A DNA stretch of 35,269 nucleotides, taken from the IMG/VR virus record IMGVR_UViG_2563366848_000003, one strand, 5' to 3'. Below, piece by piece: positions 7,242 through 25,646 of this stretch. The notes beneath the pieces were generated by a model. It did no database searches. It was not told the origin of the DNA and saw nothing but the letters and a program-made list of their open reading frames with translations. The translations under genes were made by a program, and so were the position numbers. This DNA comes from a virus (taxonomy: Duplodnaviria; Heunggongvirae; Uroviricota; Caudoviricetes). The number at the start of each line of letters is the position of its first letter. Position 1 is the first letter of the stretch.

Positions 7242-10200
7242 ATGGGTAAAGGCAGCAGTAAGGGGCATACCCCGCGCGAAGCGAAGGACAACCTGAAGTC
7301 CACGCAGCTGCTGAGTGTGATCGATGCCATCAGCGAAGGGCCGGTTGAAGGTCCGGTGGATGGATTAAAAAGCGTGCTGCTGAACAGTACGCCGGTGCTG
7401 GACAGTGAGGGGAATACCAATATATCCGGCGTCACGGTGGTGTTCCGGGCCGGTGAGCAGGAGCAGACACCGCCGGAGGGATTTGAATCCTCCGGCTCCG
7501 AGACGGTGCTCGGTACAGAAGTGAAATATGACACGCCGATCACCCGGACCATCACGTCGGCAAACATTGACCGTCTGCGTTTTACTTTCGGCGTGCAGGC
7601 ACTGGTGGAAACCACCTCAAAGGGGGACAGGAATCCATCGGAAGTCCGCCTGCTGGTTCAGATACAACGTAACGGTGGCTGGGTGACGGAAAAAGACATC
7701 ACCATTAAGGGCAAAACCACCTCGCAGTATCTGGCCTCGGTGGTGGTGGGTAACCTGCCGCCGCGCCCGTTCAATATCCGGATGCGCAGGATGACGCCGG
7801 ACAGCACCACAGACCAGCTGCAGAACAAAACGCTCTGGTCGTCATACACCGAAATCATCGATGTGAAACAGTGCTACCCGAACACGGCACTGGTCGGCGT
7901 GCAGGTGGATTCGGAGCAGTTCGGCAGCCAGCAGGTGAGCCGTAATTATCATCTGCGCGGGCGCATTCTGCAGGTGCCGTCGAACTATAACCCGCAGACG
8001 CGGCAATACAGCGGTATCTGGGACGGAACGTTTAAGCCAGCATACAGCAACAACATGGCCTGGTGTCTGTGGGATATGCTGACCCATCCGCGCTACGGCA
8101 TGGGGAAACGTCTTGGTGCGGCGGATGTGGACAAATGGGCGCTGTATGTCATCGGCCAGCATTGCGATCAGTCGGTGCCGGACGGTTTTGGCGGCACGGA
8201 GCCGCGCATCACCTGTAATGCGTACCTGACCACACAGCGCAAGGCGTGGGATGTGCTCAGTGATTTCTGCTCTGCGATGCGCTGTATGCCGGTATGGAAC
8301 GGGCAGACGCTGACGTTCGTGCAGGACCGACCGTCGGATAAGGTGTGGACCTATAACCGCAGTAATGTGGTGATGCCGGATGATGGTGCGCCGTTCCGCT
8401 ACAGCTTCAGCGCCCTGAAGGACCGCCATAATGCCGTTGAGGTGAACTGGATTGACCCGAATAACGGCTGGGAGACGGCGACAGAGCTTGTGGAGGACAC
8501 GCAGGCCATTGCCCGTTACGGTCGTAACGTCACGAAGATGGATGCTTTTGGCTGTACCAGCCGGGGGCAGGCACACCGCGCCGGGCTGTGGCTGATTAAA
8601 ACAGAACTGCTGGAAACGCAGACCGTGGACTTCAGCGTGGGTGCCGAAGGGCTTCGCCATGTACCGGGCGATGTCATTGAAATCTGCGATGATGACTATG
8701 CCGGTATCCGCACCGGCGGGCGCGTGCTGGCGGTAAACAGCCAGACCCGGACGCTGACGCTCGACCGTGAAATCACGCTGCCATCTTCCGGCACCACGCT
8801 GATAAGCCTGGTTGACGGGCAGGGGAGTCCGGTCAGCGTGGAGGTTCAGTCCGTCACCGACGGCGTGAAGGTGAAAGTGAGCCGTGTTCCTGACGGCGTT
8901 GCTGAATACAGCGTATGGGGGCTGAAGCTGCCGACGTTGCGCCAGCGCCTGTTCCGCTGCGTGAGTATCCGTGAGAACGACGACGGCACGTATGCCATCA
9001 CCGCCGTGCAGCATGTACCGGAAAAAGAGGCCATCGTGGATAACGGGGCGCACTTTGACGGCGACCAGAGCGGCACGGTAAATGGTGTCACGCCGCCAGC
9101 GGTGCAGCACCTGACCGCAGAAGTCACCGCAGACAGCGGGGAATACCAGGTGCTGGCCCGCTGGGACACGCCGAAGGTGGTGAAGGGCGTGAGCTTCCTG
9201 CTTCGCCTGACCGTGGCAGCGGATGACGGCCGTGAGCGGCTGGTCAGCACGGCCCGGACGACGGAAACCACTTACCGCTTCACACAACTGGCTCTGGGGA
9301 ACTACAGGCTGACAGTCCGGGCAGTAAATGCGTGGGGGCAGCAGGGCGATCCGGCGTCGGTATCGTTCCGGATTGCCGCACCGGCAGCGCCGTCGCGGAT
9401 TGAGCTGACGCCGGGCTATTTTCAGATAACCGCCACGCCGCATCTTGCGGTTTATGACCCGACGGTACAGTTTGAGTTCTGGTTCTCGGAAAAACGGATT
9501 GCGGATATCAGGCAGGTTGAAACCAGCGCGCGTTATCTTGGTACGGCACTGTACTGGATAGCCGCCAGTATCAATATCAAACCGGGCCATGATTATTATT
9601 TTTACGTTCGCAGTGTGAACACCGTTGGCAAATCGGCATTCGTGGAGGCTGTCGGTCAGCCGAGTGATGATGCATCAGGCTATCTGGATTTTTTCAAAGG
9701 CGAGATAGGGAAAACCCATCTGGCTCAGGAGCTGTGGACGCAGATTGATAACGGTCAGCTTGCGCCTGACCTGGCTGAAATCAGGACGTCCATTACGGAT
9801 GTCAGCAATGAAATCACACAGACCGTCAATAAGAAACTGGAAGACCAGAGTGCAGCGATCCAGCAGATACAGAAGGTTCAGGTTGATACAAATAATAATC
9901 TGAACAGCATGTGGGCTGTGAAGCTGCAACAGATGAAGGACGGACGCCTTTATATTGCGGGTATCGGTGCCGGTATTGAGAATACGCCAGCAGGAATGCA
10001 GAGTCAGGTGCTGCTGGCGGCAGACAGGATTGCGATGATTAATCCTGCGAATGGCAACACAAAACCGATGTTTGTTGGTCAGGGTGATCAGATATTCATG
10101 AATGAAGTGTTCCTGAAGCGCCTGACGGCCCCCACCATTACCAGCGGCGGCAATCCTCCGGCCTTTTCCCTGACACCGGACGGAAAGCTGACCGCTAAAA

Positions 10201-10724
10201 ATGCGGATATCAGTGGCAGTGTGAATGCGAACTCCGGGACGCTCAACAACGTCACGATTAATGAGAACTGTCAGATTAAGGGGAAACTGTCAGCCAATCA
10301 GATTGAAGGCGATATTGTCAAAACGGTCAGCAAGTCTTTCCCCCGCACGAGCACTTATGCCAGTGGCACCATCACGGTAAGAATCAGTGATGATCAGAAA
10401 TTTGACCGGCAGGTCATGATACCGCCAGTGTTATTCCGCGGTGGTAAGCATGAGAATTTCAACAGTAATAACCAACAGTCATACTGGTATTCAACCTGCC
10501 GGTTAAGAGTGACCCGCAATGGTCAGGAGATTTTTAATCAGTCCACGACGGATGCTCAGGGCGTATTTTCCTCCGTTATAGATATGCCTGCCGGACAGGG
10601 GACGCTGACACTGACATTCACCGTATCTTCATCAGGAGCGAATAACTGGACACCAACAACCAGTATCAGCGATCTGCTGGTTGTGGTGATGAAAAAATCC
10701 ACAGCAGGTATCAGTATCAGCTGA
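7242..10724 (+). CDS. J: tail tip central fibre / host specificity protein J
   Basis: 1160-aa ORF; N-terminal ~950 aa read as lambda gpJ ([54 protein letters not shown]...). The last ~250 aa carry the receptor-binding region. Confidence 0.95.
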
Positions 10725-10790: not shown

Positions 10791-11390
10791 ATGCGTAAAC
10801 TTTATGCCGCCATTTTGTCCGCAGCCATCTGTCTGGCCGTATCCGGTGCGCCTGCATGGGCGTCTGAACATCAGTCCACGCTGAGCGCGGGCTATCTTCA
10901 TGCCTCGACGAACGTTTCCGGCAGCGATGATCTGAACGGGATTAACGTGAAATACCGTTATGAGTTTACGGACACGCTGGGAATGGTGACGTCATTCAGC
11001 TATGCAGGAGACAAGAATCGCCAGCTTACCCGTTACAGCGATACCCGCTGGCATGAAGATTCCGTGCGTAACCGCTGGTTCAGCGTAATGGCGGGGCCGT
11101 CTGTGCGCGTGAATGAATGGTTCAGCGCGTATGCGATGGCGGGTGTGGCTTACAGCCGTGTGTCGACTTTCTCCGGGGATTATCTCCGCGTAATTGACAA
11201 CAAGGGGAAAACGCACGACGTGCTGACCGGAAGTGATGACGGTCGCCACAGCAACACGTCTCTGGCGTGGGGAGCTGGCGTGCAGTTTAACCCGACCGAA
11301 TCCGTGGCCATTGATATTGCTTATGAAGGCTCCGGCAGTGGTGACTGGCGCACTGACGGTTTCATCGTGGGTGTCGGTTATAAATTCTGA
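10791..11390 (+). CDS. lom: Lom outer-membrane beta-barrel protein (Ail/Lom family)
   Basis: 199-aa ORF with a signal peptide ([24 protein letters not shown]), alternating beta-strand pattern and C-terminal ...GVGYKF; located after J as in lambda. SD GAGAGG upstream. Confidence 0.9.
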
Positions 11391-11454: not shown

Positions 11455-14349
11455 ATGGCAGTACGGATTTCAGGTGTACTGAAAGATGGCGCAGGTAAGC
11501 CGATACAAAACTGCACCATTCAGCTAAAGGCCAGGCGCAACAGCACCACGGTGGTGGTGAACACAGTGGCCTCAGAAAACCCGGATGAAGCCGGGCGTTA
11601 CACAATGGACGTCGAGTATGGTCAGTACAGCGTCAGTCTGTTGGTGGAGGGATTCCCGCCGTCACACGCCGGGATTATCACCGTATATGAGGACTCAAAG
11701 CCGGGCACACTGAATGATTTCCTCGGTGCAATGACGGAGGATGATGTCCGGCCAGAGGCACTGCGCCGTTTTGAACTGATGGTGGAAGAGGTGGCGCGTA
11801 ACGCGTCCGCAGTGGCACAGAACACGGCAGCCGCGAAGAAGTCAGCCGGCGATGCCGGCACATCTGCCCGTGAGGCGGCAACCCATGCGACTGATGCTGC
11901 AGGCTCAGCACGCGCAGCCAGCACGTCAGCCGGACAGGCCGCTTCGTCGGCTCAGTCAGCGTCTTCCAGCGCAGGAACGGCATCAGCAAAGGCCACTGAA
12001 GCATCAAAAAGTGCTGCCGCTGCAGAGTCCTCAAAAAGCGCGGCGGCCACCAGTGCCGCTGCGGCAAAAACGTCAGAAACGAATGCGGCAGCGTCACAAC
12101 AATCAGCAGCCACTTCAGCATCCACCGCAACCACGAAAGCGTCAGAAGCTGCCACCTCAGCCCGGGATGCGTCGGCTTCAAAAGAGGCGGCAAAATCATC
12201 AGAAACGAGCGCAGCCTCGAGCGCCAGCAGCGCAGCTTCCTCGGCAACGGCGACAGCAAATTCTGCGAAGGCGGCAAAAACGTCCGAGACGAACGCCAAG
12301 GCTTCTGAAACGGCAGCGGGACAGAGTGCCTCAGCTGCGGCAGGCTCAAAAACAGCGGCTGCGTCGTCTGCCAGTGCCGCGTCAACAAGTGCCGGGCAGG
12401 CCTCAGCCAGTGCCACCGCCGCCGGAAAATCGGCAGAAAGTGCTGCATCGTCCGCTTCAACAGCCACAACGAAGGCTGGCGAAGCCGCTGTACAGGCCAG
12501 CGCAGCAGCGAGGTCTGCTTCCGCAGCGAAGACATCCGAAACGAATGCGAAAGCGTCGGAAACCCGTGCAGAATCCTCAAAAACGGCAGCCGCATCGTCC
12601 GCCAGTTCGGCAGCGTCATCGGCATCATCTGCGTCTGCTTCAAAAGATGAGGCGACCAGACAGGCGTCAGCAGCGAAGGGCAGCGCCACGACGGCATCCA
12701 CGAAAGCAACAGAGGCGGCAGGCAGTGCGACGGCAGCATCTCAGAGCAAAACTGCTGCTGAATCCGCTGCGACCCGTGCGGAAGCTGCTGCTGATCGTGC
12801 TGAAGAGATTGCCGGTGCAGTTGCGATGGAAGACGCAAGCCTTACAACTAAAGGTGTTGTGAAACTTAGCAGTGCTGTTGATAGCACCAGTGAATCGCTG
12901 GCCGCAACGCCAAAAGCAGTTAAAGCAGCCAATGACAATGCGAATAGCAGGGTGCCATCTAACCGAAAAGTTAACGGAAAAGCACTGACTGCGGATATAA
13001 CATTAACGCCGAAAGATATTGGTACTTTAAATTCAGTAACGATGTCTTTCTCTGGCGGGGCTGGGTGGTTCAAACTGGCTACGGTTACCATGCCACAAGC
13101 GAGTTCCATCGTTTACATCGCATTGATTGGTGGCGCTGGTTACAACGTCGGTTCCCCACATCAGGCAGGCATTTCAGAACTGGTTCTACGAGCAGGCAAT
13201 GGAAACCCCAAAGGAATTACCGGGGCTTTGTGGAAGCGTACAGCCGTCGGATTAACGAATTTCGCCTGGATCAACACATCCGGCGATACATATGATATTT
13301 ACGTTGAGATTGGCAATTATGCGACTCGTGTAAATATCCATTGGGATTGTACTGCAAATGCGACAGTTTCTATTTATACATCGCCAACATATTCAGCGAG
13401 TAAGCCTTCCAGCGTTACCGATGGTGTTGTTTATACGATGTATAGCACACATCAGAAACCGACGCCGTTAGATATTGGAGCACTGCCAACAACCGGAGGA
13501 ACAGTTTCAGGTCCGTTGTCTGTTACAGGTGGATTAACTGGTTCATTGAATGGTAATGCAAGTACAGCCACGAAATTGCAGACGGCAAGATCTATCGGTG
13601 GAGTTGTTTTCGACGGTTCTGCAAATATTAACCTTCCAGGTGTAAACACTACGGGTAATCAGAACACCACTGGTAATGCTGCAACTGCCACAAAACTACA
13701 GACTGCACGGAATATCAACGGCGTTCCGTTTGACGGCACGAAGGATATTACGCTTACGCCTAAAGATCTGGATGCCTACAGCAAAAGCGAAGTACAGAGC
13801 GCACTGGCGGGCAAACAACCGCTGGACAATACGCTGACTAATTTGAGTGGAAAGGATGTAGCTGGTCTTCTCGCATACCTTGGTTTGGGCGAAACGATAA
13901 ATAAAGCCTCCGGAGCTATGCAGAAATCGGCTAATGGAGCTGATATTTCTGATGTATCAGCCTTCCGAAATGCGCTCCAGTTAGGGACCGCCGCAACACG
14001 AGATGTTGGAGCAGATAATGCCTCGAAGTTACTGGATTTAGACAGCTTCAGGTCAATGATGTCAGGGAATGGCTACATCTACATTCCATGCATTGCGACG
14101 ACAGGAAACCCGGTGAAACTTATGTTGCAGTGGGGAACGGTGGCAACACAAAAGGGAGCTGATGCTGGATATGCCTTACCATTTGCTTTTCCCTATGCAG
14201 GCTTATTTGCGACCGGAAACCGTGGAACATCTGGCTACAATGCCGCGATGAATGTGCGTATTGCCAGCAGAACGCATATCAGTATTCAGAACTGGTCGCC
14301 ATCCGGAGAGGGCACCGAAGATTGTTGTTTTATCGCGCTGGGGTATTAA
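11455..14349 (+). CDS. stf: side tail fibre protein Stf (extended, 964 aa)
   Basis: N-terminus MAVRISGVLKDGAGKPIQNCTIQLKARRNSTTVVVNTVASENPDEAGRY as in lambda Stf; ~300-aa Ala/Ser/Thr-rich region; two phage tail fibre repeat motifs (ATKLQTAR-x-I-x-GV-x-FDG); distinct C-terminal domain ending ...FIALGY. Confidence 0.9.
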   Translation: MAVRISGVLKDGAGKPIQNCTIQLKARRNSTTVVVNTVASENPDEAGRYTMDVEYGQYSVSLLVEGFPPSHAGIITVYEDSKPGTLNDFLGAMTEDDVRPEALRRFELMVEEVARNASAVAQNTAAAKKSAGDAGTSAREAATHATDAAGSARAASTSAGQAASSAQSASSSAGTASAKATEASKSAAAAESSKSAAATSAAAAKTSETNAAASQQSAATSASTATTKASEAATSARDASASKEAAKSSETSAASSASSAASSATATANSAKAAKTSETNAKASETAAGQSASAAAGSKTAAASSASAASTSAGQASASATAAGKSAESAASSASTATTKAGEAAVQASAAARSASAAKTSETNAKASETRAESSKTAAASSASSAASSASSASASKDEATRQASAAKGSATTASTKATEAAGSATAASQSKTAAESAATRAEAAADRAEEIAGAVAMEDASLTTKGVVKLSSAVDSTSESLAATPKAVKAANDNANSRVPSNRKVNGKALTADITLTPKDIGTLNSVTMSFSGGAGWFKLATVTMPQASSIVYIALIGGAGYNVGSPHQAGISELVLRAGNGNPKGITGALWKRTAVGLTNFAWINTSGDTYDIYVEIGNYATRVNIHWDCTANATVSIYTSPTYSASKPSSVTDGVVYTMYSTHQKPTPLDIGALPTTGGTVSGPLSVTGGLTGSLNGNASTATKLQTARSIGGVVFDGSANINLPGVNTTGNQNTTGNAATATKLQTARNINGVPFDGTKDITLTPKDLDAYSKSEVQSALAGKQPLDNTLTNLSGKDVAGLLAYLGLGETINKASGAMQKSANGADISDVSAFRNALQLGTAATRDVGADNASKLLDLDSFRSMMSGNGYIYIPCIATTGNPVKLMLQWGTVATQKGADAGYALPFAFPYAGLFATGNRGTSGYNAAMNVRIASRTHISIQNWSPSGEGTEDCCFIALGY
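11850..12800 (+). repeat. intragenic low-complexity Ala/Ser/Thr coding repeats within stf
   Basis: Reiterated peptide units (AAKTSETNAKASE, SAASSASSAASSA) and matching DNA motifs such as gcggcaaaaacgtc[ac]ga[ag]acgaa at ~12061 and ~12274; similar unit at ~12523. These drive the long shadow ORFs on both strands (11678-12838, 11852-12862, 11952-12701). Confidence 0.8.
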
Positions 14350-14351
14350 GA

Positions 14352-14762
14352 ATGAATAAATTTTATAAAGGCTCTTTCTATCCGAAAGCACTAAAAGAGG
14401 TATATATCAGCGCCGGTTCATGGCCTGAAAATGGCGTTGATGTTGATGATGAAACAATGGCAATTTACACAGGCGTAGCGCCACAAGGCAAAACGCTGGG
14501 GGCTGATAAAAATGGTAATCCTGCGTGGATTGATATCCCGCCACTCTCCGCTGAACAACAGATTATTCAGGCTGAACAGAAAAGAACGGTATTGCGTTCT
14601 ATGGCTGATAAGGAAATAGCCTGGAGACAGGATGCTTTTGATGCGGAAATCGCGACGGCAGAAGAAACCGCCGCGTTATCTGAATGGAAAAAATACCGGG
14701 TCTTGCTGATGCGCGTTGATACAGCAAAACCCGTATGGCCTGTCAATCCGCAGGATATTTAA
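14352..14762 (+). CDS. tfa: tail fibre assembly protein Tfa
   Basis: ATG at 14352 directly after the stf stop (MNKFYKGSFYPKALKEVY...); conserved Tfa C-terminal motif ETAALSEWKKYRVLLMRVDTAKPVWPVNP. The tabulated start at 14322 overlaps stf and is less likely. Confidence 0.85.
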   Translation: MNKFYKGSFYPKALKEVYISAGSWPENGVDVDDETMAIYTGVAPQGKTLGADKNGNPAWIDIPPLSAEQQIIQAEQKRTVLRSMADKEIAWRQDAFDAEIATAEETAALSEWKKYRVLLMRVDTAKPVWPVNPQDI

Positions 14763-14976
14763 CGGGGGCGTTGTAGGTGGTGACATATTCAAGCAGTTCT
14801 GTTGGATATGTCACCGTTGCTGCATCTCGCTCTACGTTAAATGTATCCGCTCCCCAGATAACACACTCCCTCAAAAATGCCTCCACCTCTGGCGAGACTT
14901 CAACCGCATCATCAGGTCGCTCTTGTTCAGAAACATAAAAACCAACGGTCGTTGGGCTGAAATACATATTCTCCAT
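14743..14976 (-). pseudogene. inverted alternative tail-fibre assembly gene tfa' (N-terminal 77 aa only)
   Basis: Minus-strand ORF MENMYFSPTTVGFYVSEQ... has a Tfa-type N-terminus (YFS...GFY) but lacks the conserved Tfa C-terminal domain; its 3' end overlaps tfa. Confidence 0.45.
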
Positions 14977-14978
14977 AT

Positions 14979-15452
14979 TTAGTATCCTATTGCTTCAAAA
15001 TGCAAAGTCGGAATTTCGCCGAGATTGGGTGTCGTATACGACACAGTGAATCGCGTTCTTGATACGTCAGTGCCAGAATCAGTATCGCGATGCGTTGCCA
15101 GTGATTTCCCAGCCATTGTTGCCTGGGTCGAAAAGCTGTAACTCGCTAGTGTTGCCAGCGTTGCTATTTGTGCATTTGGGAATTGTCTGGGGAAATTAAC
15201 CCTGTAGTAATGGGTGTAGTACAGCACTCCACCAAGAGTAATTGCGTTGAAATTACCAACAGGCGTCAGTGTCACAGTACCAACCTGTCGAATCATACCA
15301 TTTGGGAGAATATCCCAGGCAGTTTGTCCGTTTCGCGACATACCAAATGCGGACATGTCCGGGAGTTGATTATTACCGGTTCCGACATTACGTTTTGCCG
15401 CTTCTCCCAATTGAACGTTTATGAAAATGCAGAAATAGCGCGCAAATGGCAT
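14979..15452 (-). pseudogene. inverted alternative tail-fibre C-terminal segment (Sv'-like), no start of its own
   Basis: Minus-strand frame ending ...PTLHFEAIGY, paralleling the stf C-terminus ...CCFIALGY and sharing a D-x-SAF motif. Position and orientation (stf-tfa / tfa'-Sv' / pin) match Mu G, P1 C and e14 P invertible segments. Confidence 0.5.
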
Positions 15453-15481
15453 CGTTCCTGTTTTTGTCAGGAGGAGCTATC

Positions 15482-15610
15482 ATGCTTATTGGCTATGTTC
15501 GCGTATCAACAAATGACCAGAACACAGATCTACAACGTAATGCGCTGAACTGTGCAGGATGCGAGCTGATTTTTGAAGACAAGATAAGCGGTACAAAGTC
15601 CGAAACCTAG
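15482..15610 (+). pseudogene. pin: truncated serine DNA invertase (Pin/Gin/Hin family), first 42 codons only
   Basis: MLIGYVRVSTNDQNTDLQRNALNCAGCELIFEDKISGTKSET* matches the N-terminus of Pin/Gin including the catalytic Ser in VRVSTNDQ; the frame stops at TAG 15608-15610 and similarity is lost thereafter. Confidence 0.8.
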
Positions 15611-15657
15611 GGCTGACACTGCTGTTCTTGTTGCAAATTAAAGGATTTAATAGTGAG

Positions 15658-15685
15658 TAGCGGCCTTACTAATGTAAGGCCGCTA
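15658..15685. terminator. perfect 12-bp-stem hairpin at the pin'/cargo junction
   Basis: TAGCGGCCTTACtaatGTAAGGCCGCTA lies 21 nt downstream of the minus-strand DUF262 gene stop and 48 nt after the pin' stop. Confidence 0.4.
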
Positions 15686-15705
15686 TAATCATTTTATTAA
15701 TTGCA

Positions 15706-17595
15706 TTAATCGTGTTTTGGCCATACTTTCAATGCAATTTCCCCCAACTTTTTACCCCGCTCCAGGATTTCATCCTCATCCCATTTATCCTTAACTATAA
15801 GTGGAATGTTCAGTCGTAGATTGGTGTGGACGATGAGAGCATCACGTTTTTTCAGAAATACAGCATTCTGAACAGAACGGTTTACGCTAAGGTTAAGCAA
15901 AGTTAGATTTCCCAACGTAGCTATCGCTTGTTGCCGTTTCCTTACCAGTAGCTGTTCTGGGGTAAGATCGGTTCCAGACAGAACAATTTGGTTCAATACC
16001 GTAGCATCTGAATTTGTCACCATATGACCATTTTCGAGAGGCCAACAGGAATACCAACTTTGAGGCATAAGATGATCGATATCGAGGTTAGAAAGATTTG
16101 GAACATCAGGCTTCTCTGTCTTCACTTGGCGACAAAGTTCTCTTTCAAGTTCCGTTAACATTGAGCGCATTTTCGGTGCGTCGAGCCTGCCAGGATAAAG
16201 TGGAGCATTGATGCAAGCGTTGAGAAATTCTGAGTCCCCAGGCCAACGTGAGGCTTCGCCATTTAAGCTATTGAGGATATTACGTAACTCAACACTGGAA
16301 ATTTCTGTTTTAGACAAGTGCCGCAATACATTCATAAATACATTGTTGTAATTCTTTGGCGTCAGGCCACATACGGCTCTTCGTACTACGTAGGAGACAA
16401 GATCATTATACATGGCTGCTTTCTCATCATCGGCGATGTTAGCTATCGAAATGAACAAAGCAAGCGGATAAAGTGTCGTCACATCATAGGCTGCGATGCG
16501 ATGTCCAAAGTGTGAGATGGGGGTTGTGCCAAAACCACCAACCAATTCTTTATATTGTGATGCATATTGTTTGAGGCGCTTTACTTGCAGATCTGCTCGT
16601 TGTGAAGGCAAGTCCTTACTTACATAATCACGATACTCATTGTAAAGACGAGACAGATCGATTTCACGTTGCCTTTCTGATTGCAATGTTGCATGCACTA
16701 GCCACTCCATGCGTGGTTTATTAATACGACCACGACGTTGTCTTTCTGACCAGTACGTATCTTCAAAGATCTTCCACTCATTCTCATATAATTCAACAGC
16801 ATTAATATTTTCATGTTCAGCGCACATAAAAATATAATTGCGAATAAGATCTGTGGCATGAAGTTCCGCACCTCTGCCATTTAATGTTTCAAAAATTATT
16901 TGAGCGTCATCTTCAGCCTCGAGAAATATGCTTACTAGTTTCAGATCCGTCAAGACAGCCTCAATTAATGCTACAGCATTTTCTCGTGGTGAGTGATTTT
17001 CTATTTTAATCCACTTTATAAAGGCTTCAGTAAAAAAACATAATGCTTCTAGTGATGGCGGGTGATTAAAATGCTTACGCAACGTACCATGCTGCGTGAA
17101 ACTATCAGAGAATACATTCCGGATATCGTCAATATTTTCAACATTAAAACTTTGAATAAAATGAGTTTGATCCCGAAAAGTTGGCCACAGTTTGAAGCGC
17201 TCTACTTCTTTATTTCGCATTGTGTCTTCGTTTGAGTTTTTCAGGCAAGACGAAATGAGAGGCTCTAAGTTGGAAAGATCTGTCGCACGTAATGCTAATC
17301 GGATGGATGCCAGAACATATTGAAGAGTGGTCAATCGTTGCTGACCATCAATAATATGTATGGAATCTACACCGAATAATCCTTTTTTTGGTTGAGGTTC
17401 CAGTACCACTGCACCAAGGAAATGGGGAGTTGGTTTTGTACCCGAGAGCCGGGATTGTGCTTTCTCTAGGATATCCTCCAGTAGAGCTGACCATTGGTTT
17501 CGCTGAGTCCATACATAGGCACGTTGATAGAATGGAACACAGTATTGTCGGCGGTCTTGAAAAAGTTGTTGGACAGTTAGCGTCTCGGATTTCAT
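15706..17595 (-). CDS. DUF262 (ParB-like NTPase, DGQQR) + DUF1524 (His-Me finger nuclease) protein; GmrSD-family putative type IV restriction endonuclease
   Basis: N-terminal motifs PFYQRAYVWT and IIDGQQRLTTL; C-terminal LDIDHLMPQS...N; about 630 aa. Start chosen at the ATG (17595) preceded by AGG, giving MKSETLTVQQLF...; an upstream in-frame ATG at 17655 has no SD. AT-rich relative to the flanking phage genes. Confidence 0.8.
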   Translation of the reverse strand: MKSETLTVQQLFQDRRQYCVPFYQRAYVWTQRNQWSALLEDILEKAQSRLSGTKPTPHFLGAVVLEPQPKKGLFGVDSIHIIDGQQRLTTLQYVLASIRLALRATDLSNLEPLISSCLKNSNEDTMRNKEVERFKLWPTFRDQTHFIQSFNVENIDDIRNVFSDSFTQHGTLRKHFNHPPSLEALCFFTEAFIKWIKIENHSPRENAVALIEAVLTDLKLVSIFLEAEDDAQIIFETLNGRGAELHATDLIRNYIFMCAEHENINAVELYENEWKIFEDTYWSERQRRGRINKPRMEWLVHATLQSERQREIDLSRLYNEYRDYVSKDLPSQRADLQVKRLKQYASQYKELVGGFGTTPISHFGHRIAAYDVTTLYPLALFISIANIADDEKAAMYNDLVSYVVRRAVCGLTPKNYNNVFMNVLRHLSKTEISSVELRNILNSLNGEASRWPGDSEFLNACINAPLYPGRLDAPKMRSMLTELERELCRQVKTEKPDVPNLSNLDIDHLMPQSWYSCWPLENGHMVTNSDATVLNQIVLSGTDLTPEQLLVRKRQQAIATLGNLTLLNLSVNRSVQNAVFLKKRDALIVHTNLRLNIPLIVKDKWDEDEILERGKKLGEIALKVWPKHD

Positions 17596-18065
17596 GGTAT
17601 ACCTGTAAGCGACATTGTACAAAAGTGAGGAGTTAATCTGATTTAGAACAATCATTTTATGTTGCTATGATACAACGTATTTGTTACCGGTTAAGTAAAA
17701 AACGCGTCTGAACGCTGACGTTTTAGGGCTTTACTAGTTATTCTTTCTTATCTCTTCATCATCCCATCGGCATCCTGTCGAGGTTGTTGACTTGTTGTTA
17801 TTTATTTTGTTTAGGCGCTGTTTAATTATTATTGATGGGACTGGTGGTGAGAGGTGATTGAAACCGCAGACAGGTCGTATGCAAGACGTGCTGCGGTTGG
17901 CTGATGCACTTTTGATAGTGCAAGTATTGAATGATTGCCAGTCACAGCGGATTGTACTTAGGTAATATGACGGTTCAAGGCGTTTAAACTGAAACCATCC
18001 ACATATCAGTCTCTTCAAACATTTCCTAAATCGTTCGGCTTATCTGTTCTTTCTCACGTTTGCTG

Positions 18066-18460
18066 ACGTCAGTGCTGATTGCCGGCAGTGTCATCATCGG
18101 TTTTACACGATACCCTTTGCGTTGAACGAGTCGTACTACTGTAACAGCGCGTCGGTGAAGCTGCTCATCCCGACACAGGACAGTCGGGATATCATTGCAG
18201 TAGCAACGGGGAGTCTGGATGCAATATGGAAAGACGGACACCGATATCAGAAAGCCGGGGTAATGCTGGGGGACTTCTTCAGTCAGAGCATGCCCTAACC
18301 TATTCGACGATAACGCGCTGGGTCCTGGGAGCGAAAAGTTAATGAGCGTGCTGGAGCACCTCAATGCAAAAGACGGGAAGGAAACACTCTGTTTCGCTGG
18401 GCAGGGCATTCAGCAGCAGTGGCAGATGAAACGCGAGATATTTTCGCACCGGTATACAAC
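18066..18460 (+). pseudogene. umuC: 3' remnant of umuC-like Y-family polymerase gene, frameshifted
   Basis: Translation reads ...RFYTIPFALNESYYCNSASVKLLIPTQDSRDIIAVATGSLDAIWKDGHRYQKAGVMLGDFFSQ then, after a frame break, ...LMSVLEHLNAKDGKETLCFAGQGIQQQWQMKRE..., matching the C-terminal ~120 aa of UmuC. No N-terminal portion or umuD is present. Confidence 0.6.
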
Positions 18461-18525
18461 TAGATTTTCTGGCATTTTAGGTGGTTAGATAGATATTTAT
18501 GCTCTACGCAATGAATATGAGAGAA

Positions 18526-19191
18526 TTAATTGTCTAAGCTGGTATAATATGAATAAAGGCTTTTTCCCATTATTTTCTCTAAATCCTTTTTGTTTCTAAA
18601 GAAAATGTTTGAGATATGCTGATGATAATACTTTATAATGATTCTCATCAGCGCCGATACTACTTCATGAAGTTTTTTCACCATTTTATGCTGTGTTGAA
18701 TTACAATCTCCCTCCATAAGTGATATAAATGTTGATGTAACATTTAGGTTCGCTTGGGGGGAGGAGTGAACATAATAACAGGCGTTGATATAGACATTAT
18801 GTAAATAAGACCAGCCTTCATCGACTTGTTGGGCTTTTAAGAAGTCAAAGTCTCTACGACGTACAGTTTGGTCAAAATCCCCACCATTGTAGTTCTTATT
18901 GAGGCTTATTCTGGCCACATGCTCCACCATTGAGCGGAAGTTCAGTTGGAGATACCGTTCTCTTTTTTTTATAATGGCAATTAAGGAGTTTAAGGTATCA
19001 TATATAAAACCTTTTATATAAGAAGAGTGATTTAGATTAGGATTGTGACTTAAAATTGTATTACAAAGACTTATTTGCCTAAATATTGATACTGATTTGT
19101 TTATTTCATCAGTGGTTCTGAGGTGCTTTTGCACCTCCGCTCTAAAATAATTTACATCTCTTCCAATGTTGAAGGGATCCTGCGTGAGCAT
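18526..19191 (-). CDS. hypothetical protein (221 aa), third gene of the ParA-like operon
   Basis: AT-rich ORF; its start overlaps the stop of the upstream 132-aa gene (translational coupling). No family recognised by eye. Confidence 0.6.
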   Translation of the reverse strand: MLTQDPFNIGRDVNYFRAEVQKHLRTTDEINKSVSIFRQISLCNTILSHNPNLNHSSYIKGFIYDTLNSLIAIIKKRERYLQLNFRSMVEHVARISLNKNYNGGDFDQTVRRRDFDFLKAQQVDEGWSYLHNVYINACYYVHSSPQANLNVTSTFISLMEGDCNSTQHKMVKKLHEVVSALMRIIIKYYHQHISNIFFRNKKDLEKIMGKSLYSYYTSLDN

Positions 19192-19589
19192 TATTCTTCT
19201 TCCTTTTTATTTGCATTAATCCAAATATTTAAATTCCTTATAGCATGCTTGCTTTTAGATGTGGATTTTTGGCTTGTTTTATTTGCATCATTAAAAATAA
19301 TGTCTAATGTGTTAATGTTGTTTAAGAAATGCGTATAAGCCATCTTTATGTCATTCTCACTTAATTCATTAATATGTCTGCAAATTTTAGCGCACATCAA
19401 AGTTCTTGACCGTACAGCATAATTCAAAAAAGATATTTTGAAGGTTTTGTTAATAAATTTACTAACATCAAAATTTGATCTAAAAACCTCTTTTGAAAGA
19501 ATCAACATAATTACCAAGCCTAAGAAGTTTTCTTTGGTCATGGGCATATTATTAGCTTTATTGAGCGCTTTAATTAATTGTTTATTCAT
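19191..19589 (-). CDS. hypothetical small protein (132 aa), second gene of the ParA-like operon
   Basis: Start overlaps the ParA-like gene 3' end by 8 nt; Lys/Asn-rich; no family recognised. Could be a small centromere-binding or adaptor protein. Confidence 0.5.
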   Translation of the reverse strand: MNKQLIKALNKANNMPMTKENFLGLVIMLILSKEVFRSNFDVSKFINKTFKISFLNYAVRSRTLMCAKICRHINELSENDIKMAYTHFLNNINTLDIIFNDANKTSQKSTSKSKHAIRNLNIWINANKKEEE

Positions 19590-20427
19590 TTGTGTTACCT
19601 TCCAAGTGAGCCACTCTGTTAATAAATTCGTTACAGATCTTTTCTATATCTTGGCGTGACTTTGAATAACAAGAAGGAATATTTCCTTGATAACCTACCA
19701 TTAAATCACGCACGTAGGTTAATTGATTTTCAAAGAAATAAAAATTTGTAAATTGAGTATGGTTTTCGAATTGTTCTTTAATTTCCCTTGTTTTATTGGT
19801 CATTTCAGCATCAGTGTTTGTATAAATGTAACCGACTTGCTTGATTTCTTTCTCATGATGTGTGCGCATATTTCTTATAACGCTATTTAAACTGCTTGCT
19901 CCAAGCACCGAGTAGTGATCAATTTTAACCGGAGTAAGATAATAATCAGAAGCAAGGAGTGCGGTATCTGTAAATAATGAGATTGTTGGGGGGCTATCGA
20001 TAAAGATATAGTCGTAACTTTCTTTTAAGTCATTTTCGGTGATGAATTTACGCAACATTTTTATTCTAATACCCTCTTGGTTAGTATCAAAGATAATGTT
20101 TATATCACCTAAGATAATATCAAGATTGTCTGAAACTTTAGTAATGACCTGTTCTGGTGTCACTTTCTTTTCATCTTCCATTAATGAATTTGGAAGCTCA
20201 AAAATCTTTCGAATGGTTTGATTATTAGGGCGAAGGGCAGTCATATATTCTTCTACTCGATCATAATGCCCCATTAAGGACTGAGTGGCATTAAATTGAG
20301 GATCAATATCGATAACTAGAACCTTGCGCCCCATATGGTTGGCTAAAAACTCAGCAATCCCAACGCATAAAGTTGTTTTACCAACCCCACCTTTCATATT
20401 GATAAAACTAATTACTGGTGCAGTCAT
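19582..20427 (-). CDS. ParA/MinD-family P-loop ATPase (deviant Walker A)
   Basis: N-terminal FINMKGGVGKTTLCVGIAEFLA (KGGxGKT deviant Walker A), VIDIDPQ and downstream DSPP motifs typical of ParA/Soj; SD AAGGA 6-8 nt upstream of the ATG at 20427. Confidence 0.8.
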   Translation of the reverse strand: MTAPVISFINMKGGVGKTTLCVGIAEFLANHMGRKVLVIDIDPQFNATQSLMGHYDRVEEYMTALRPNNQTIRKIFELPNSLMEDEKKVTPEQVITKVSDNLDIILGDINIIFDTNQEGIRIKMLRKFITENDLKESYDYIFIDSPPTISLFTDTALLASDYYLTPVKIDHYSVLGASSLNSVIRNMRTHHEKEIKQVGYIYTNTDAEMTNKTREIKEQFENHTQFTNFYFFENQLTYVRDLMVGYQGNIPSCYSKSRQDIEKICNEFINRVAHLEGNTNE

Positions 20428-20450
20428 TTTTTCATCCTTAATTATGTAGT

Positions 20451-20465
20451 GTGAAATAGATTCAC
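20451..20465. promoter_or_regulatory. candidate operator palindrome upstream of the ParA-like gene
   Basis: GTGAA-ataga-TTCAC inverted repeat 24-38 nt upstream of the ParA-like start codon. Confidence 0.25.
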
Positions 20466-21175
20466 TATGCTGAAAGCATTTTTTAGCTTAATTTTTATAC
20501 TGCGCGTTGACTTATCACCCTATCATATATGATTTTTAGGTGTTGCATAGACTGGTTTTATATCAGGGGCTTAGGTTGTATGTGGCGTCACAGAATCACT
20601 AATCATTGAACTTTGTACATGTAACAGTCCGGTTAAATAATATATAATGGGTTGTTAAGTTGGCTCTCTGATTCCTGATGCCCCAAGGACGCGCGTCATT
20701 GCGTGCCAGATTAACTTTTCGTCGGGCACAGTGCTATCGGCAATTATTTCCTCAGCCTCTTTCCCGCATAGGTCTTGGCGCATCCATTTTCTTGCTATGA
20801 AATCTCCAGCCGGTCAGACTGAAAGTATAGAAGAGAATATGCGAATCGCTGTTCCGGTGTTTCTGGGAGAGCTTATGTCGGAGTAATTCCCCGGTAATTG
20901 AATCTCTTTTGCTCGCTCATAACAGACATTCACTACAGTTATGGTAGAAAGTATGTATGCTGATTGGGGAAAGTGTGAAAGAAAAGAAGACTGCTGCGCT
21001 GTTTGTCGTCACGTTTATCTTCATTGGCTATGCAAGTCATAATACAAGGTGGGACAAAACTGAGACACATAAGGCCTCACAATGGCTTGCAAGGCTTTAC
21101 ATGTTTTGATGTGGTGGGACGTGTGAGCACAGTGTTGATGGGGTAATACTTTGAATTAGAAGCGGATTCTTATAA

Positions 21176-21220
21176 TTCGTAATGCGAAGGTCGTAGGTTC
21201 GACTCCTATTATCGGCACCA
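21176..21220 (+). other. 45-bp 3' fragment of tRNA-Thr(CGU) (thrW-like): attachment-site remnant
   Basis: attcgtaatgcgaaggtcgtaggttcgactcctattatcggcacca contains the anticodon loop (CGT), T-arm GGTTCGACTCC and the 3' acceptor with CCA, but the preceding 30 nt do not form the D-arm or 5' acceptor, so it is not a complete tRNA gene. Confidence 0.75.
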
Positions 21221-21383
21221 TCTCAACTTCCTCAAACGTCCATATTTGTCCATAAATACCCTGATTTATAAAGACTTTTCTGCTTTTAAGTCCATCTTTG
21301 TCCGTAACCATCCAGTAGAATCCGATACGGAATGTGTATAGGATTGTGTATATGTTTCTGTTCTGTCCTGGATTCCTATACAC

Positions 21384-22553
21384 ATGCCTTTAAACGATAT
21401 GCAGATTCGTCGCGCTAAGCCTGAAGAGAAACCCTATACGCTTGGGGATGGTCAAGGCTTGTCATTACTTATAGAACCTAATGGGAGCAAGAGCTGGCGG
21501 TTTCGCTATCGCTATGCCGGTAAACCCAAAATGATCTCGCTTGGTGTTTACCCAACGATCACCCTTGCCGATGCTCGTTCCCGTCGTGACGAAGCCCGCA
21601 AATTGGTCGCCGAAGGAAAGAATCCGAGTGAGGTTCGAAAAGAGCAGAAGATTGCTTTGCAAACCGAGTCTGAAAGCGCGTTCGAAAAGATAGCGACAGA
21701 GTGGCACCAGATGAAATCTGCCAAATGGTCGGCCGGTTATGCATCAGACATCATGGAAGCTTTTCAGAACGATATTTTCCCTTATGTAGGTAAAAGGCCA
21801 ATTGGCGAAATAAAACCGCTAGAATTGCTTAATGTGCTGCGTAAAATTGAAAAACGAGGTGCGTTGGAGAAAATGCGGAAAGTGCGACAGCGTTGCTCGG
21901 AGGTTTTCCGTTATGCCATTGCTACAGGTAGAGCCGAGTTTAATCCTGCGGCAGATCTCTCAAGTGCCCTCGAAGTGCATCAATCCAATCATTTCCCGTT
22001 CCTTAAAGCTGATGAGTTACCTGATTTTTTGCGTGCTCTAGACAGTTACACAGGGAGTCGGCTTGTCCTTATTGCTACGAAGTTACTGATGATTACGGGC
22101 GTAAGAACCATTGAATTACGTGCAGCTTTATGGTCGGAATTTGATCTGGATAACGCTATTTGGGAAATACCAGCAGAAAGGATGAAAATGCGTAGGGCAC
22201 ACCTTGTGCCACTATCGACTCAAGCGTTAGATTTACTTAATGAACTCAAAGCGATGACAGGAAACTACCGTTATGTTTTTCCTGGACGAAATGATCCGAA
22301 TAAGCCAATGAGTGAGGCAAGTGTAAACCAAGTAATCAAACGCATTGGCTTTGGTGGCAAGGTTACAGGGCACGGATTCAGACATTCAATGTCTACTATT
22401 TTGCATGAGCAAGGATTTGAATCGAGTTGGATAGAGATGCAATTAGCTCATGTTGATAAAAACAGTATCCGAGGCACTTATAACCATGCTCAGTATTTTG
22501 ATAAACGCAGAGTTATGATGCAGTGGTATGCTGATTATGTACAGGGGAAATAA
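21384..22553 (+). CDS. int: P4-type tyrosine integrase
   Basis: 389-aa ORF with the P4-type N-terminal domain (IRRAKPEEKPYTLGDGQGLSLLIEPNGSKSWRFRYRYAGKPK) and a C-terminal catalytic domain (HGFRHSMSTILHEQGF ... HVDKNSIRGTYNHAQY); lies 164 bp downstream of the tRNA fragment. Confidence 0.95.
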   Translation: MPLNDMQIRRAKPEEKPYTLGDGQGLSLLIEPNGSKSWRFRYRYAGKPKMISLGVYPTITLADARSRRDEARKLVAEGKNPSEVRKEQKIALQTESESAFEKIATEWHQMKSAKWSAGYASDIMEAFQNDIFPYVGKRPIGEIKPLELLNVLRKIEKRGALEKMRKVRQRCSEVFRYAIATGRAEFNPAADLSSALEVHQSNHFPFLKADELPDFLRALDSYTGSRLVLIATKLLMITGVRTIELRAALWSEFDLDNAIWEIPAERMKMRRAHLVPLSTQALDLLNELKAMTGNYRYVFPGRNDPNKPMSEASVNQVIKRIGFGGKVTGHGFRHSMSTILHEQGFESSWIEMQLAHVDKNSIRGTYNHAQYFDKRRVMMQWYADYVQGK

Positions 22554-24053
22554 ATGCAAACTTCGAGAGCTATTAATAAAAATGTCGGGGGAAATGACTC
22601 TGAAAAATATCTTTCTAAGCTGTGTGAAAGAACTTTTTTAAGCTTGTGGAGTTATCCAAATGTTTATACTGATGAAGGAAAAAAAACGGCGTCGGGAGAT
22701 GGGAAGGAACTCTGTGATCTTCTAGTTGTATTTGAAAATCATGTCATAATATTTTCCGATAAAGATATTTCGTTTAAGGATTCAGGGGATTTAAAAGTTG
22801 ATTGGGGGCGTTGGGTTAAAAGGGCTGTTATTAAATCCGCAGTTCAACTTTATGGTGCCGAGTCATCATTAAAAGAGAGACCCGGTAGGTTATTTCTTGA
22901 TGCTAAGTGTAATGTCCCTTTTCCAATTAAAGTGCCAAAGTGTGACGAAATTATCGTTCACCGAATTGCTGTTGCAAAGAATGCATCAAAAAAATTCCAA
23001 GAGCATTCTGGCGGTTCTGGGAGTTTGATTATATGTCCGCGCATAGTGGGAAACCAACATTTTGATACTCCGTTTATGATCGGTCAGCCCATTGCTGACA
23101 AGCCTTATGTGCATGTTTTTGATGATATTGCTTTAGATATTATACTTTCTGAACTCGATACAATTGCTGATTTTATAGATTATCTTAGTAAGAAGGAAGA
23201 ATTTATTGCTTCAGGAGGACTAAACTCGGCAGCGGGAGAGGAAGAACTTTTAGCATGGTACTATATAAATGCTAAAGATGGGCGTGAGCCGGGGTTTTAT
23301 ATAGAGAAAGGAGTATCAGCTTTGATTGTTGAGGGGGCCTATGAATCTCTTAAAAACCTTCCTCAGTTTATTAGAGGGAAAGAACTAAATTCTAATTCTT
23401 ATTTTTGGGATGCCTGTATAGAAAATTTTGCGAAACATATGCTTAGTGGGACAATATTGTCCGAAGGGGATTTTTCATTTGATGAGATGACTCGTGGTCT
23501 AAGAATTATGGCATCCGAGACGAGATTTTCAAGGCGTATACTATCAAATGCAATAATTGAAAAAGTCACCTCCATCCCTCATGGGCAAAGAGGTGTTAGA
23601 GTTTTGGTCTCTCCCAGTAACAGCGATAATGGGTATGTTTGGCTAGTGGTTCCGGTGCCAGAATGTTGCACATCATATGATGACTATAGAAAATATCGTA
23701 AAGATACTCTCTCTGTTTACTGTGCTTCAGCAAAGCTACTTTTCCCGGATATGAAATATATAGTTGGAGTTGCCACAGAACCGATGGGGGGGAATGGAGG
23801 GGAAGATATGGTGTTTATTGATTCAACTCAGTGGACAGAGGATGACTACGAAAGAGCTCGAAAAGATAGAGATGAATTTAAAGCTTTACTTCCGGATAAT
23901 ATTAAAAGAACTGATGATCACGATTATCAATTCCCTATTCTTCCTGGAGACTATCCTGAAAAAGAAACTTTAAGGGTTGAAAAGAATAGTAAGGCTAGAA
24001 TAAAACGAATTAAAAAGGCGCAAAAAAAAGCCCGTAGAAATAACAGAAAATGA
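22554..24053 (+). CDS. hypothetical protein (499 aa), cargo at the integrase-proximal position; possible nuclease-like N-terminal region, basic C-terminal tail
   Basis: ATG immediately follows the int stop (TAAATG) with SD AGGGGA; AT-rich. N-terminal segment ELCDLLVVFENHVIIFSDKD is loosely reminiscent of a PD-(D/E)xK core (unverified); C-terminus KNSKARIKRIKKAQKKARRNNRK is highly basic. Confidence 0.7.
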   Translation: MQTSRAINKNVGGNDSEKYLSKLCERTFLSLWSYPNVYTDEGKKTASGDGKELCDLLVVFENHVIIFSDKDISFKDSGDLKVDWGRWVKRAVIKSAVQLYGAESSLKERPGRLFLDAKCNVPFPIKVPKCDEIIVHRIAVAKNASKKFQEHSGGSGSLIICPRIVGNQHFDTPFMIGQPIADKPYVHVFDDIALDIILSELDTIADFIDYLSKKEEFIASGGLNSAAGEEELLAWYYINAKDGREPGFYIEKGVSALIVEGAYESLKNLPQFIRGKELNSNSYFWDACIENFAKHMLSGTILSEGDFSFDEMTRGLRIMASETRFSRRILSNAIIEKVTSIPHGQRGVRVLVSPSNSDNGYVWLVVPVPECCTSYDDYRKYRKDTLSVYCASAKLLFPDMKYIVGVATEPMGGNGGEDMVFIDSTQWTEDDYERARKDRDEFKALLPDNIKRTDDHDYQFPILPGDYPEKETLRVEKNSKARIKRIKKAQKKARRNNRK

Positions 24054-24091
24054 GTTATGATCAAATCAAGGGCCTTTTTAAGGCCTTTGAA

Positions 24092-24874
24092 TCAATCTTT
24101 GGCGTGTGATTTAAATTTAAATGATATTTTTCTCTTGGTATTTCTTAAGGATTTTGAAATTCGCCATTTTAAATTGAATAAAGTATCCAATAGCTTTTCT
24201 GAGTTCTGCTTATTTAGTAGTCTGTGTTCTTGTCTTATCATAAGGAATATTTCAAGGTATGGGTCGTCAATTTTTTCTTCCAGTTCTTCACAAGAGTAGC
24301 TGTTGACACGTTCAAGAGCGATATATTCCATCCTTATCTCATTTGGTTCCCTTAAACTTGTTTTTTCCCATTCTAATCTAATTGGCTTACTAAAAAGGGA
24401 TATGTTCTCCTTAATATGTGCCATAACACGTCTAAAACGATTGTTAAATTCTTCATTATCAGTATGCATAACTGGTGATTGATTTCCTAATAATGTTGAA
24501 CTTTTTTCTCTTTGGAATTTGTAATATTCCTCTGATACTTTTTTGCTAAAGCTGGCTTGATCTGATTTATTCTTGAAGCTTATATGTTCATAACTATCCG
24601 GACCATATATTTGTTCCATCCAGTGCAACTGACTAAATTGATTGACGGCTTGTTCTAAATCTTTATCTTCTGATGTGTATGTTTTCTGTGATTTTATTTT
24701 GTAGTCGAAAAGTAGTAAGTCGCAAACATCGAAGTAGATTTTGTCATAAGTTCTTAGACGTTCTATTTTTCTATTGTATTTTGACTGGCGAATGGTATTT
24801 AAAAATCCTAGGCAGGATATGATAAAACCACCTATAGAAATATATAAAGAAATTGAAGTGTTATCCTGCACCAA
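24092..24874 (-). CDS. hypothetical membrane-anchored protein (260 aa) with an N-terminal transmembrane helix
   Basis: N-terminus MVQDNTSISLYISIGGFIISCLGFLNTI is a predicted TM helix followed by a charged domain of unknown function. Convergent with the 499-aa gene (38-bp gap); AT-rich. Confidence 0.65.
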   Translation of the reverse strand: MVQDNTSISLYISIGGFIISCLGFLNTIRQSKYNRKIERLRTYDKIYFDVCDLLLFDYKIKSQKTYTSEDKDLEQAVNQFSQLHWMEQIYGPDSYEHISFKNKSDQASFSKKVSEEYYKFQREKSSTLLGNQSPVMHTDNEEFNNRFRRVMAHIKENISLFSKPIRLEWEKTSLREPNEIRMEYIALERVNSYSCEELEEKIDDPYLEIFLMIRQEHRLLNKQNSEKLLDTLFNLKWRISKSLRNTKRKISFKFKSHAKD

Positions 24875-24980
24875 CTTTCTCCCCTCTGAAAAATAGAATT
24901 CTTAAACCTAAAATTAATTGCATCTTCGGATAAGCTTTTCTATCTCAAAAAATTTAAATGGTCAACTATATTGGTGCGCA

Positions 24981-24999
24981 ATGCTCTCCCCGCCACGCC
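24981..24999 (-). other. P2/P4-type cos-like site
   Basis: Reverse complement GGCGTGGCGGGGAGAGCAT matches the P2/P4 19-nt cohesive end GGCGAGGCGGGGAAAGCAC (recalled from memory) at 16 of 19 positions; located between the integrase-side cargo and psu, where cos sits in integrated P4. Confidence 0.5.
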
Positions 25000-25004
25000 T
25001 GCCC
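24987..25004. repeat. 18-bp direct repeat ccccgccacgcctgcccg, copy 1 (overlaps the cos-like site)
   Basis: Identical 18-mer found again at 25433-25450. Confidence 0.8.
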
Positions 25005-25627: not shown

Positions 25628-25646
25628 CGAGGATTGCTTTGAGCCG

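Follow-up and report, generated by a model that had tools for sequence, protein, structure and literature searches.

An invertible side tail fibre cassette in a lambda-like Escherichia coli prophage that turned after loss of its adjacent invertase gene, probably through invertases encoded elsewhere

Introduction

In the invertible segments of phages Mu (G segment, invertase Gin) and P1 (C segment, invertase Cin), the constant part of a fibre gene (Sc) is joined to one of two alternative sets of tip and partner genes (Sv-U or Sv'-U') by inversion between 26-bp sites, one of which is abutted by the invertase gene. Inversion by the Din family of enzymes (Gin/Cin/Pin/Hin type) requires a Fis-bound enhancer in cis, which in Mu G and P1 C is located in the 5' end of the invertase gene. 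Inversion of these two segments switches host range, and the enzymes can also act on segments other than their own: PinQ of Qin and PinE each invert the P segment of e14, PinE inverts Mu G and the Salmonella H segment, and Fin of Fels-2 inverts H (PMC12529663). Here, we describe a cassette of this type that occupies the 3' end of stf, the side tail fibre gene, in the virus record IMGVR_UViG_2563366848_000003, a 35,269-nucleotide (nt) stretch of DNA that was analysed at its full length (the window) and that holds the tail end of a lambda-like E. coli prophage with the gene order J, lom, stf, tfa (Table 1).

Positions 13868-15632 very probably represent a complete Din-family invertible host-range cassette that is flipped as an orphan substrate by invertases encoded elsewhere. 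The original prediction, made from this DNA alone, had recognised the layout of the Mu G, P1 C and e14 P segments (Sc, Sv-tfa, a convergent partner-Sv' pair and then the invertase), and in this respect it was borne out. Its further claim that the switch is fossilised in one orientation is contradicted by prophages that share the same truncation of the invertase gene and yet occur in both orientations, with an exchange of half-sites that is exact to the base.

In its mode of operation the cassette corresponds to the segments e14 P, Mu G and P1 C, with which it shares crossover sites that have a common core, the occurrence of inversion and the Sc/Sv/Sv' architecture. It resembles e14 P with its invertase PinE (in K-12: stfP-tfaP / tfaE-stfE-pinE) in gene order and in its Gp53-like tips, and its four half-sites match the TTCTCCCAAACC-like half-site of e14 P at 8-11 of 12 positions; in some strains, the same cassette is located in an e14-like (ymfQ-linked) prophage together with an intact pinE that is 95% identical to the truncated gene of the window (pin'). 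It differs from e14 P in that the constant part is formed by 809 codons of a lambdoid Stf rather than by a short fibre stub, in that the cis-encoded invertase is a pseudogene, and in that one of the two partner genes specifies a protein of 77 amino acids (aa) rather than a canonical Tfa. Compared to Mu G and P1 C, whose general arrangement it shares, the segment is smaller (1536 bp), is part of a siphovirus side fibre and lacks a functional cis invertase. Being turned by an invertase encoded elsewhere would place it beside the cases of PinQ on e14 P, PinE on Mu G and H, and Fin on H; however, the targets in those cases usually keep an invertase of their own, whereas the cis gene is dead in the window, where trans action would thus be obligatory, judging from comparative genomics.

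Results

Crossover sites and the predicted product of inversion

Several complete E. coli genomes contain near-identical copies of the prophage, among them TL-14 (99.6% identity over 14300-15700). In the window, tfa starts 2 nt past the stop codon of stf and overlaps by 20 nt, 3' end to 3' end, with the convergent gene for the 77-aa protein. The latter gene is followed on its upstream side by the silent alternative tip Sv', which as a mechanical open reading frame (ORF) extends over 157 codons (14979-15452, minus strand) to an ATG at 15452. As originally proposed, this ORF is an inverted alternative fibre C-terminal segment: it contains a Gp53-like_C domain, ends in EAIGY where Stf ends in ALGY, and matches PHROG tail-fibre families down to 2.4e-15.

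The crossover sites were located through a tblastn search with the 77-aa ORF, which led to phage phi458 (100% identity). In phi458 the 77-aa gene is co-oriented with the fibre gene and located directly 3' of it, and the fusion point (marked here by a slash) could be read off by comparing its fibre, ...KDVAGLLAYL/QLGEAAKRN...EAIGY, with the Stf of the window, ...KDVAGLLAYL/GLGETINKA...ALGY. Furthermore, when the window was scanned at up to 3 mismatches with the palindrome TTCTCCCAAACCWWGGTTTGGGAGAA, built from the published e14 P-segment repeat TTGGTTTGGGAGAAGG (PMC12529663), the left site was the sole match, the chance expectation being 0. The right site was defined by the natural recombinants described below. 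The two sites thus form an inverted pair of ~26 bp with an identical 2-bp core (TT/AA), and the invertible unit between the cores is 13880-15415 (1536 bp). The original prediction had pointed to the Sc/Sv junction of stf and to 15400-15480 as places where residual sites should be sought, and sites were indeed found, the left one lying outside the region that it had delimited. A generic inverted-repeat search detected no long inverted repeat around the segment, and nothing convincing, because both sites are too short and imperfect for such a search. A location of the left site near 13960-13990, suggested by a protein similarity (FRNALQLG and FINVQLG), was rejected, as its spacing is 3 nt off and its DNA match is poor; the true site is 90 bp upstream.

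In silico inversion of the unit generates an in-frame Stf of 953 aa ending in EAIGY, with the 77-aa gene commencing 2 nt later, a gap which is the same as that between stf and tfa. The arrangement of phi458 is exactly as predicted, and only 2 mismatches separate it from the in silico inverted window over 12800-15003. The constant part is therefore in frame with either tip, each tip has its own partner, and the two sets are convergent. The low identity between the tips, which had been noted previously and amounts at the protein level to 48% over 33 aa only, is normal for such cassettes and thus does not indicate decay.

Two further features of this locus were observed. In RefSeq, several genomes have the lambdoid stf labelled 'partial, missing C-terminus' and the silent tip listed as a stand-alone 'phage tail protein', although both the window (964 aa) and strain 32-4 possess an intact ORF; these labels are probably artefacts of annotating invertible fibre genes. 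Just past the tfa stop codon, at 14779-14815, a 14-bp inverted repeat (GGTGACATATTCAA / TTGGATATGTCACC, 9-nt loop) is located within the 3' part of the coding sequence for the convergent 77-aa protein and is kept in the P2-like copy; it might serve as a terminator between the two convergent gene sets.

Both orientations occur in prophages lacking an intact invertase

A set of 5,426 complete E. coli genomes was searched with a query for each orientation. The query for the inverted orientation, composed of the predicted inverted right junction, pin' and the 3' end of GmrSD, matched six genomes from end to end in one piece (100% coverage), with 98.7% identity in W21 and 99.7% in the five others. 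Full-length matches to the query for the window orientation were obtained in five genomes, which are free of insertion sequences (IS) and possess the same pin'-GmrSD junction, and the orientation was also found in about ten more genomes with an IS3 at window position 15212 and, among the matches listed, in 17 ST167-type genomes in which IS903B abuts pin' at 15653. In four IS-free genomes (32-4, WCHEC025985, 3090 and BDSF8-3), both junctions predicted for the inverted state are present along with pin'-GmrSD, and 32-4 forms a single collinear alignment with the in silico inverted window over 12891-21226 and has an intact, full-length Stf-Sv' ORF. Sc is thus found joined to either tip among sister genomes, and in inverted genomes Sv is on the opposite strand, beside pin'.

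Strains 164 and WCHEC005784 form a pair which carries an additional internal marker. Their J, Lom, IS3 transposase and GmrSD proteins are identical, they share the same frameshifted pin', and the flanks of the segment are 100% and 99.94% identical, while the DNA from one site to the other (2852 bp, including the IS3 in Sv') is inverted in one strain relative to the other, with 1 mismatch, and 2 bp overlap at the left junction. The left site has the sequence TTCTCGCATACC-TT-GGTTTGGGCGAA in uninverted genomes and TTCTCGCATACC-TT-CAATTGGGAGAA in inverted ones, and the right site has TTCTCCCAATTG-AA-CGTTTATGAAAA and TTCGCCCAAACC-AA-CGTTTATGAAAA, respectively; the exchange of half-sites is therefore exact at the central dinucleotide. 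The crossover sites of the window are identical to those of the copies that flipped. Both orientations are thus present among near-identical prophages, including pairs that share the truncation of pin and the internal IS3. Since the truncation (and, in one pair, the IS3) is a single event common to both orientations, at least one inversion must have taken place after the loss of the invertase.

An increase in identity near the left crossover of WCHEC005784 was considered as a sign of module import and was dismissed, as the 460 bp preceding the site match perfectly and the last mismatch is at 13420. The IS3-family element in Sv' is present in ~11 genomes, where it disrupts the alternative tip, leaves the crossover sites untouched and serves as a marker of inversion. 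In the ST167-type strains (as in NZ_CP083869.1), IS903B is located 40 bp past the pin' stop codon and the whole GmrSD block is missing.

The 77-aa protein as partner of the silent tip

The original prediction regarded the 77-aa ORF as an inverted, partial copy of tfa that lacks its C-terminal domain. The ORF indeed has no match to Caudo_TAP (PF02413), nor to any other Pfam family at E up to 0.1, but the remainder of the claim did not hold: in a profile comparison, the 77-aa family is unrelated to the neighbouring Tfa (hhalign probability 0.8%), and residues 1-31 only resemble the N-terminus of Tfa phrog_188 (E=8e-5). Of the two inverted ORFs, similarity to fibre-tip proteins was therefore confirmed for the tip, and similarity to Tfa is confined to this short part of the 77-aa ORF. 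The length of the latter is unchanged beside intact invertases, as observed in a P2-like prophage (EC11), in Mu/e14-like prophages (Res13-Lact-EB12-05 and CRE1493) and in the same lambdoid prophage (2017.15.02CC), which are the intact modules with which a comparison had been recommended. A database search retrieved 34 relatives from E. coli, Citrobacter, Enterobacter, Phytobacter and metagenomes. Of these, 24 were counted as full-length; they comprise 77-84 aa at 59-97% identity, and none contains a Pfam domain. Klebsiella phage KP12 harbours an unannotated copy with 48.6% identity in the order invertase, tip, 77-aa gene, followed by a convergent Tfa and fibre. We conclude that the 77-aa protein is the native and complete partner of Sv' rather than the product of a truncated tfa.

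In three P2-like loci that are non-invertible, a gene of the 77-aa type is located alone between the fibre gene H and the sheath gene. This slot is exactly that of P2 gene G, which encodes the fibre assembly protein. The H C-termini in those loci are 83% (for a 420-aa H fibre) and 50% identical to Sv', and the small protein tracks them at 74% and 59% identity. Assembly proteins are thus matched in two respects, as the 77-aa gene is directly downstream of the fibre gene and is co-inherited with the tip. The AlphaFold (AF2) model of the protein is confident and shows a compact alpha/beta fold (mean pLDDT 92). A sequence search of the PDB returned no matches and the model has no significant relative in the PDB, while its best viral match (BFVD) is a weak one, to a 60-aa protein annotated as a tail fibre assembly protein (E=0.03). 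Based on synteny and co-variation, the protein is most likely a short assembly factor, and a chaperone role may be inferred for it.

The invertase pseudogene and its enhancer region

The presence of the first 42 codons of a truncated Pin/Gin-family invertase, as originally stated, was confirmed. From its ATG at 15482, pin' encodes MLIGYVRVSTNDQ..., the N-terminus of a serine DNA invertase, and alignment with the intact 184-aa pinE and with a 188-aa P2-like invertase revealed that ...GTKSE is followed by a 1-nt deletion and a TAG. Similarity to invertases persists weakly as far as about 15632 (alignments end at ~15604-15632), with none beyond. The adjacent gene is therefore in the right place and of the right family, but is a 42-codon pseudogene where relatives carry intact versions of 184 and 188 aa.

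The enhancer of Hin is 65 bp in length, is located ~100 bp from hixL and contains ATTTA and TAATG between two Fis sites (PMC3798978). In the window, 15503-15566 contains ATCTA (15528-15532) and TAATG (15538-15542) between two G...C 15-mers, the midpoints of which are 95.5 and 144.5 bp away from the crossover centre. This putative enhancer is wholly inside the retained part of pin'.

Sequence similar to the 3' 422 nt of pinE, a stretch that is absent from the window, is present in 4,689 of the 5,426 genomes (86%), at a median of two places per genome. Presumably, inversion after the loss of pin was catalysed by invertases encoded elsewhere in the genome.

Loss of the invertase and the right end of the prophage

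In strain 2017.15.02CC, pinE is intact in the same lambdoid prophage and is succeeded by a GIY-YIG gene and by paired C5-methyltransferase and type II restriction genes, and the right end of the Mu-like prophage of CRE1493 is the same. In the lineage of the window, the DNA from approximately codon 42-50 of pin onwards is replaced by GmrSD, fragments of dinI and umuC, two ORFs and a ParA gene. An exchange of cargo at the right end of the prophage thus appears to have truncated pin as a side effect. As intact relatives carry pinE, GIY-YIG, C5-methyltransferase and type II restriction genes in the place of 15633-20427, this prophage end behaves as a variable spot for defence cargo. A hairpin at the edge of the replacement cargo is not part of the switch. 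Downstream of the cargo, 21384-35269 is occupied by a P4-like satellite into which an IS21 has inserted, with two ORFs without a Pfam match directly after its integrase gene. P4-like elements often carry defence genes in that position.

Distribution of the cassette

The same cassette is found at 95-99% identity in lambdoid, P2-like and Mu/e14-like prophages, which fits the horizontal exchange of fibre modules that has long been known. The pair of Sv' and the 77-aa gene was additionally observed at ~97% identity on many E. coli plasmids of 90-118 kb. This is the size range of P1-like phage-plasmids, and these plasmids may be P1-like; their similarity to the window suggests that the pair also sits in plasmid-borne fibre cassettes.

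Table 1. Features of the window, with strand and supporting matches
Feature	Position	Strand	Remarks
J	7242-10724
lom	10791-11390
stf	11455-14349	+	964-aa ORF; Pfam phage_tail_N 1.2e-71 (N-terminus) and Gp53-like_C
Sc, constant part of stf	11455-13879	+	codons 1-808 and first base of Leu809
Left crossover site	13868-13893	+	TTCTCGCATACC TT GGTTTGGGCGAA; in stf, codons ...LLAYLGLGE; central TT 13880-13881
Sv, expressed variable tip	13882-14349	+	155 aa, ends ALGY; Gp53-like_C 3.3e-7, Stf residues 889-964
tfa, canonical tail fibre assembly protein, partner of Sv	14352-14762	+	136 aa; Caudo_TAP 2.4e-31; phrog_188 3.8e-42
77-aa gene, partner of Sv'; putative function, from its fibre-assembly slot	14743-14976	-	starts 2 nt past the Sv' stop codon
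Sv', silent alternative tip	14979-15413	-	144 aa after the crossover, ends EAIGY; Gp53-like_C 2.2e-6
Right crossover site	15402-15427	+	TTCTCCCAATTG AA CGTTTATGAAAA; central AA 15414-15415; defined by natural recombinants
pin', invertase pseudogene	15482-15610	+	42 codons; Pfam Resolvase N-terminal 6.6e-9; PHROG 'DNA invertase' 5e-30
Putative Fis-dependent recombinational enhancer	15503-15566	.	proposed from position
Hairpin at edge of replacement cargo	15657-15686	.	13-bp stem
GmrSD	15706-17655	-	GmrSD_N and GmrSD_C domains
Two ORFs	18526-19191, 19191-19589	-	no Pfam match
ParA-like ATPase	19582-20427	-
P4-like satellite integrase	21384-22553
Two ORFs after satellite integrase	22554-24053; 24092-24874	+; -	no Pfam match
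IS21 (istA/istB) in satellite	26570-28872
P4-like satellite Psu-like protein	29051-29812	-
P4-like satellite primase/D5 helicase	32042-34432

Discussion

We propose that late transcription would read from Sc (stf codons 1-809) into whichever tip faces it, so that Sv and the canonical Tfa would be expressed in the orientation of the window, and Sv' and the 77-aa protein following inversion between the central TT and AA; the two small partner genes, each 2 nt past its own tip gene, converge in the middle of the segment. The cis invertase gene would have been destroyed when the cargo at the right end was swapped for the GmrSD-containing block, with survival of the crossover sites and of the 5' 120-150 bp of pin, where Din enhancers lie, and the cassette would since then act as an orphan substrate turned by Din invertases from elsewhere in the cell. 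Both sites, the in-frame inversion product, natural products of inversion after the loss of pin and the pairing of Sv' with the 77-aa gene were demonstrated. The two tips would presumably recognise different receptors.

The opposite explanation, that of a fossil locked in its present orientation with a truncated invertase, a degraded tfa' and decayed crossover sites, might be drawn from the mere 42 codons that pin' retains, from the missing Caudo_TAP domain of the 77-aa ORF, from the lack of a long inverted repeat beside the segment and from the single orientation shared by all 17 ST167-type genomes among the matches listed. It is almost certainly wrong, being already contradicted by the genomes with the same truncation in both orientations and exact half-site exchange; in addition, Din sites are merely 26 bp and naturally imperfect, and the 77-aa gene is equally long in intact modules and in non-invertible phages. 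It is also highly improbable that the two orientations arose through homologous recombination or gene conversion, with a second prophage or a P1-like plasmid in the same cell supplying the cassette in the other orientation, rather than through site-specific inversion in trans. Donors are admittedly common, as prophages of the P2-like, Mu/e14-like and lambdoid types and plasmids of 90-118 kb carry the cassette at 95-99% identity, and the constant part of stf is visibly mosaic among strains. However, the sites have no more than a few bases in common, which makes recombination of the RecA type unlikely. Import from another prophage is unlikely as well, since 164 and WCHEC005784 contain one and the same DNA in opposite directions, with the IS3 marker retained and a single difference in 2852 bases. 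Furthermore, the junctions coincide exactly with the 2-bp core, identity of the flanks remains at 100% up to the sites, and only ~200 bp of homology is available to the right of the segment.

A different kind of alternative concerns function. The free fibre-tip protein StfE2 of the e14 P segment is reported to mask a surface receptor (PMC12529663), and the ATG-initiated ORF adjacent to pin' (157 aa here and 168 aa when inverted) could by analogy be a free tip that masks a surface receptor as an inversion-controlled anti-phage device, besides or instead of a host-range switch. The ATG, 13 codons upstream of the crossover, is kept in P2-like and e14-like copies, and the adjoining defence genes (GmrSD) would suit such a role. 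We nevertheless consider it improbable, as a scan of 13700-15750 detected no sigma-70-like promoter (0 found where 3.5 were expected) and thus gives no reason to assume that the silent cassette is expressed on its own. The context for ribosome binding is weak, and the ORF may owe its start simply to the sequence that separates the crossover site from pin. A wider reading would combine several of these elements: a stable 'slave' switch, as opposed to one about to decay, set by the invertases of co-resident prophages or plasmids, one such invertase co-ordinating the fibres of several resident elements with this cassette (lambdoid, P2-like, e14-like and plasmid-borne), the 77-aa protein as a new, minimal class of chaperone without Caudo_TAP, and possible StfE2-like masking by the pin-proximal tip ORF. 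As a whole, this is rather unlikely.

Several points weigh against the orphan cassette that we favour. The action of an invertase from elsewhere on the pin-less copies of the flipped genomes is inferred, and the presence of an active invertase in the host of the window itself is an assumption. The function of 15503-15566 as an enhancer is suggested by its position. Complete assemblies provide one orientation per strain, and rare events over evolutionary time would look alike in such data. The uniform (window) orientation of the 17 ST167-type genomes, already mentioned, carries little weight, as these isolates are clonal. Finally, the prophage may be defective, the terminase being frameshifted in TL-14, and side tail fibres are accessory in lambda-like phages, which renders the phenotypic consequence of inversion uncertain.

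The present results leave the understanding of invertible fibre systems unchanged and are mildly new only in documenting the flipping of an invertase-less copy and in the 77-aa partner family. This family, which has no Pfam match, is likely to be the assembly partner of one type of Gp53-like tip and would be useful for fibre or tailocin engineering. Annotation pipelines call the fibre gene or the silent tip of such loci 'partial' or 'hypothetical'. A truncated invertase beside an invertible segment does not equal a locked switch, given that enzymes of the Din family work in trans and that an E. coli genome usually encodes more than one or two of them; the receptor specificity of the side fibres of this prophage can still differ between sister strains.

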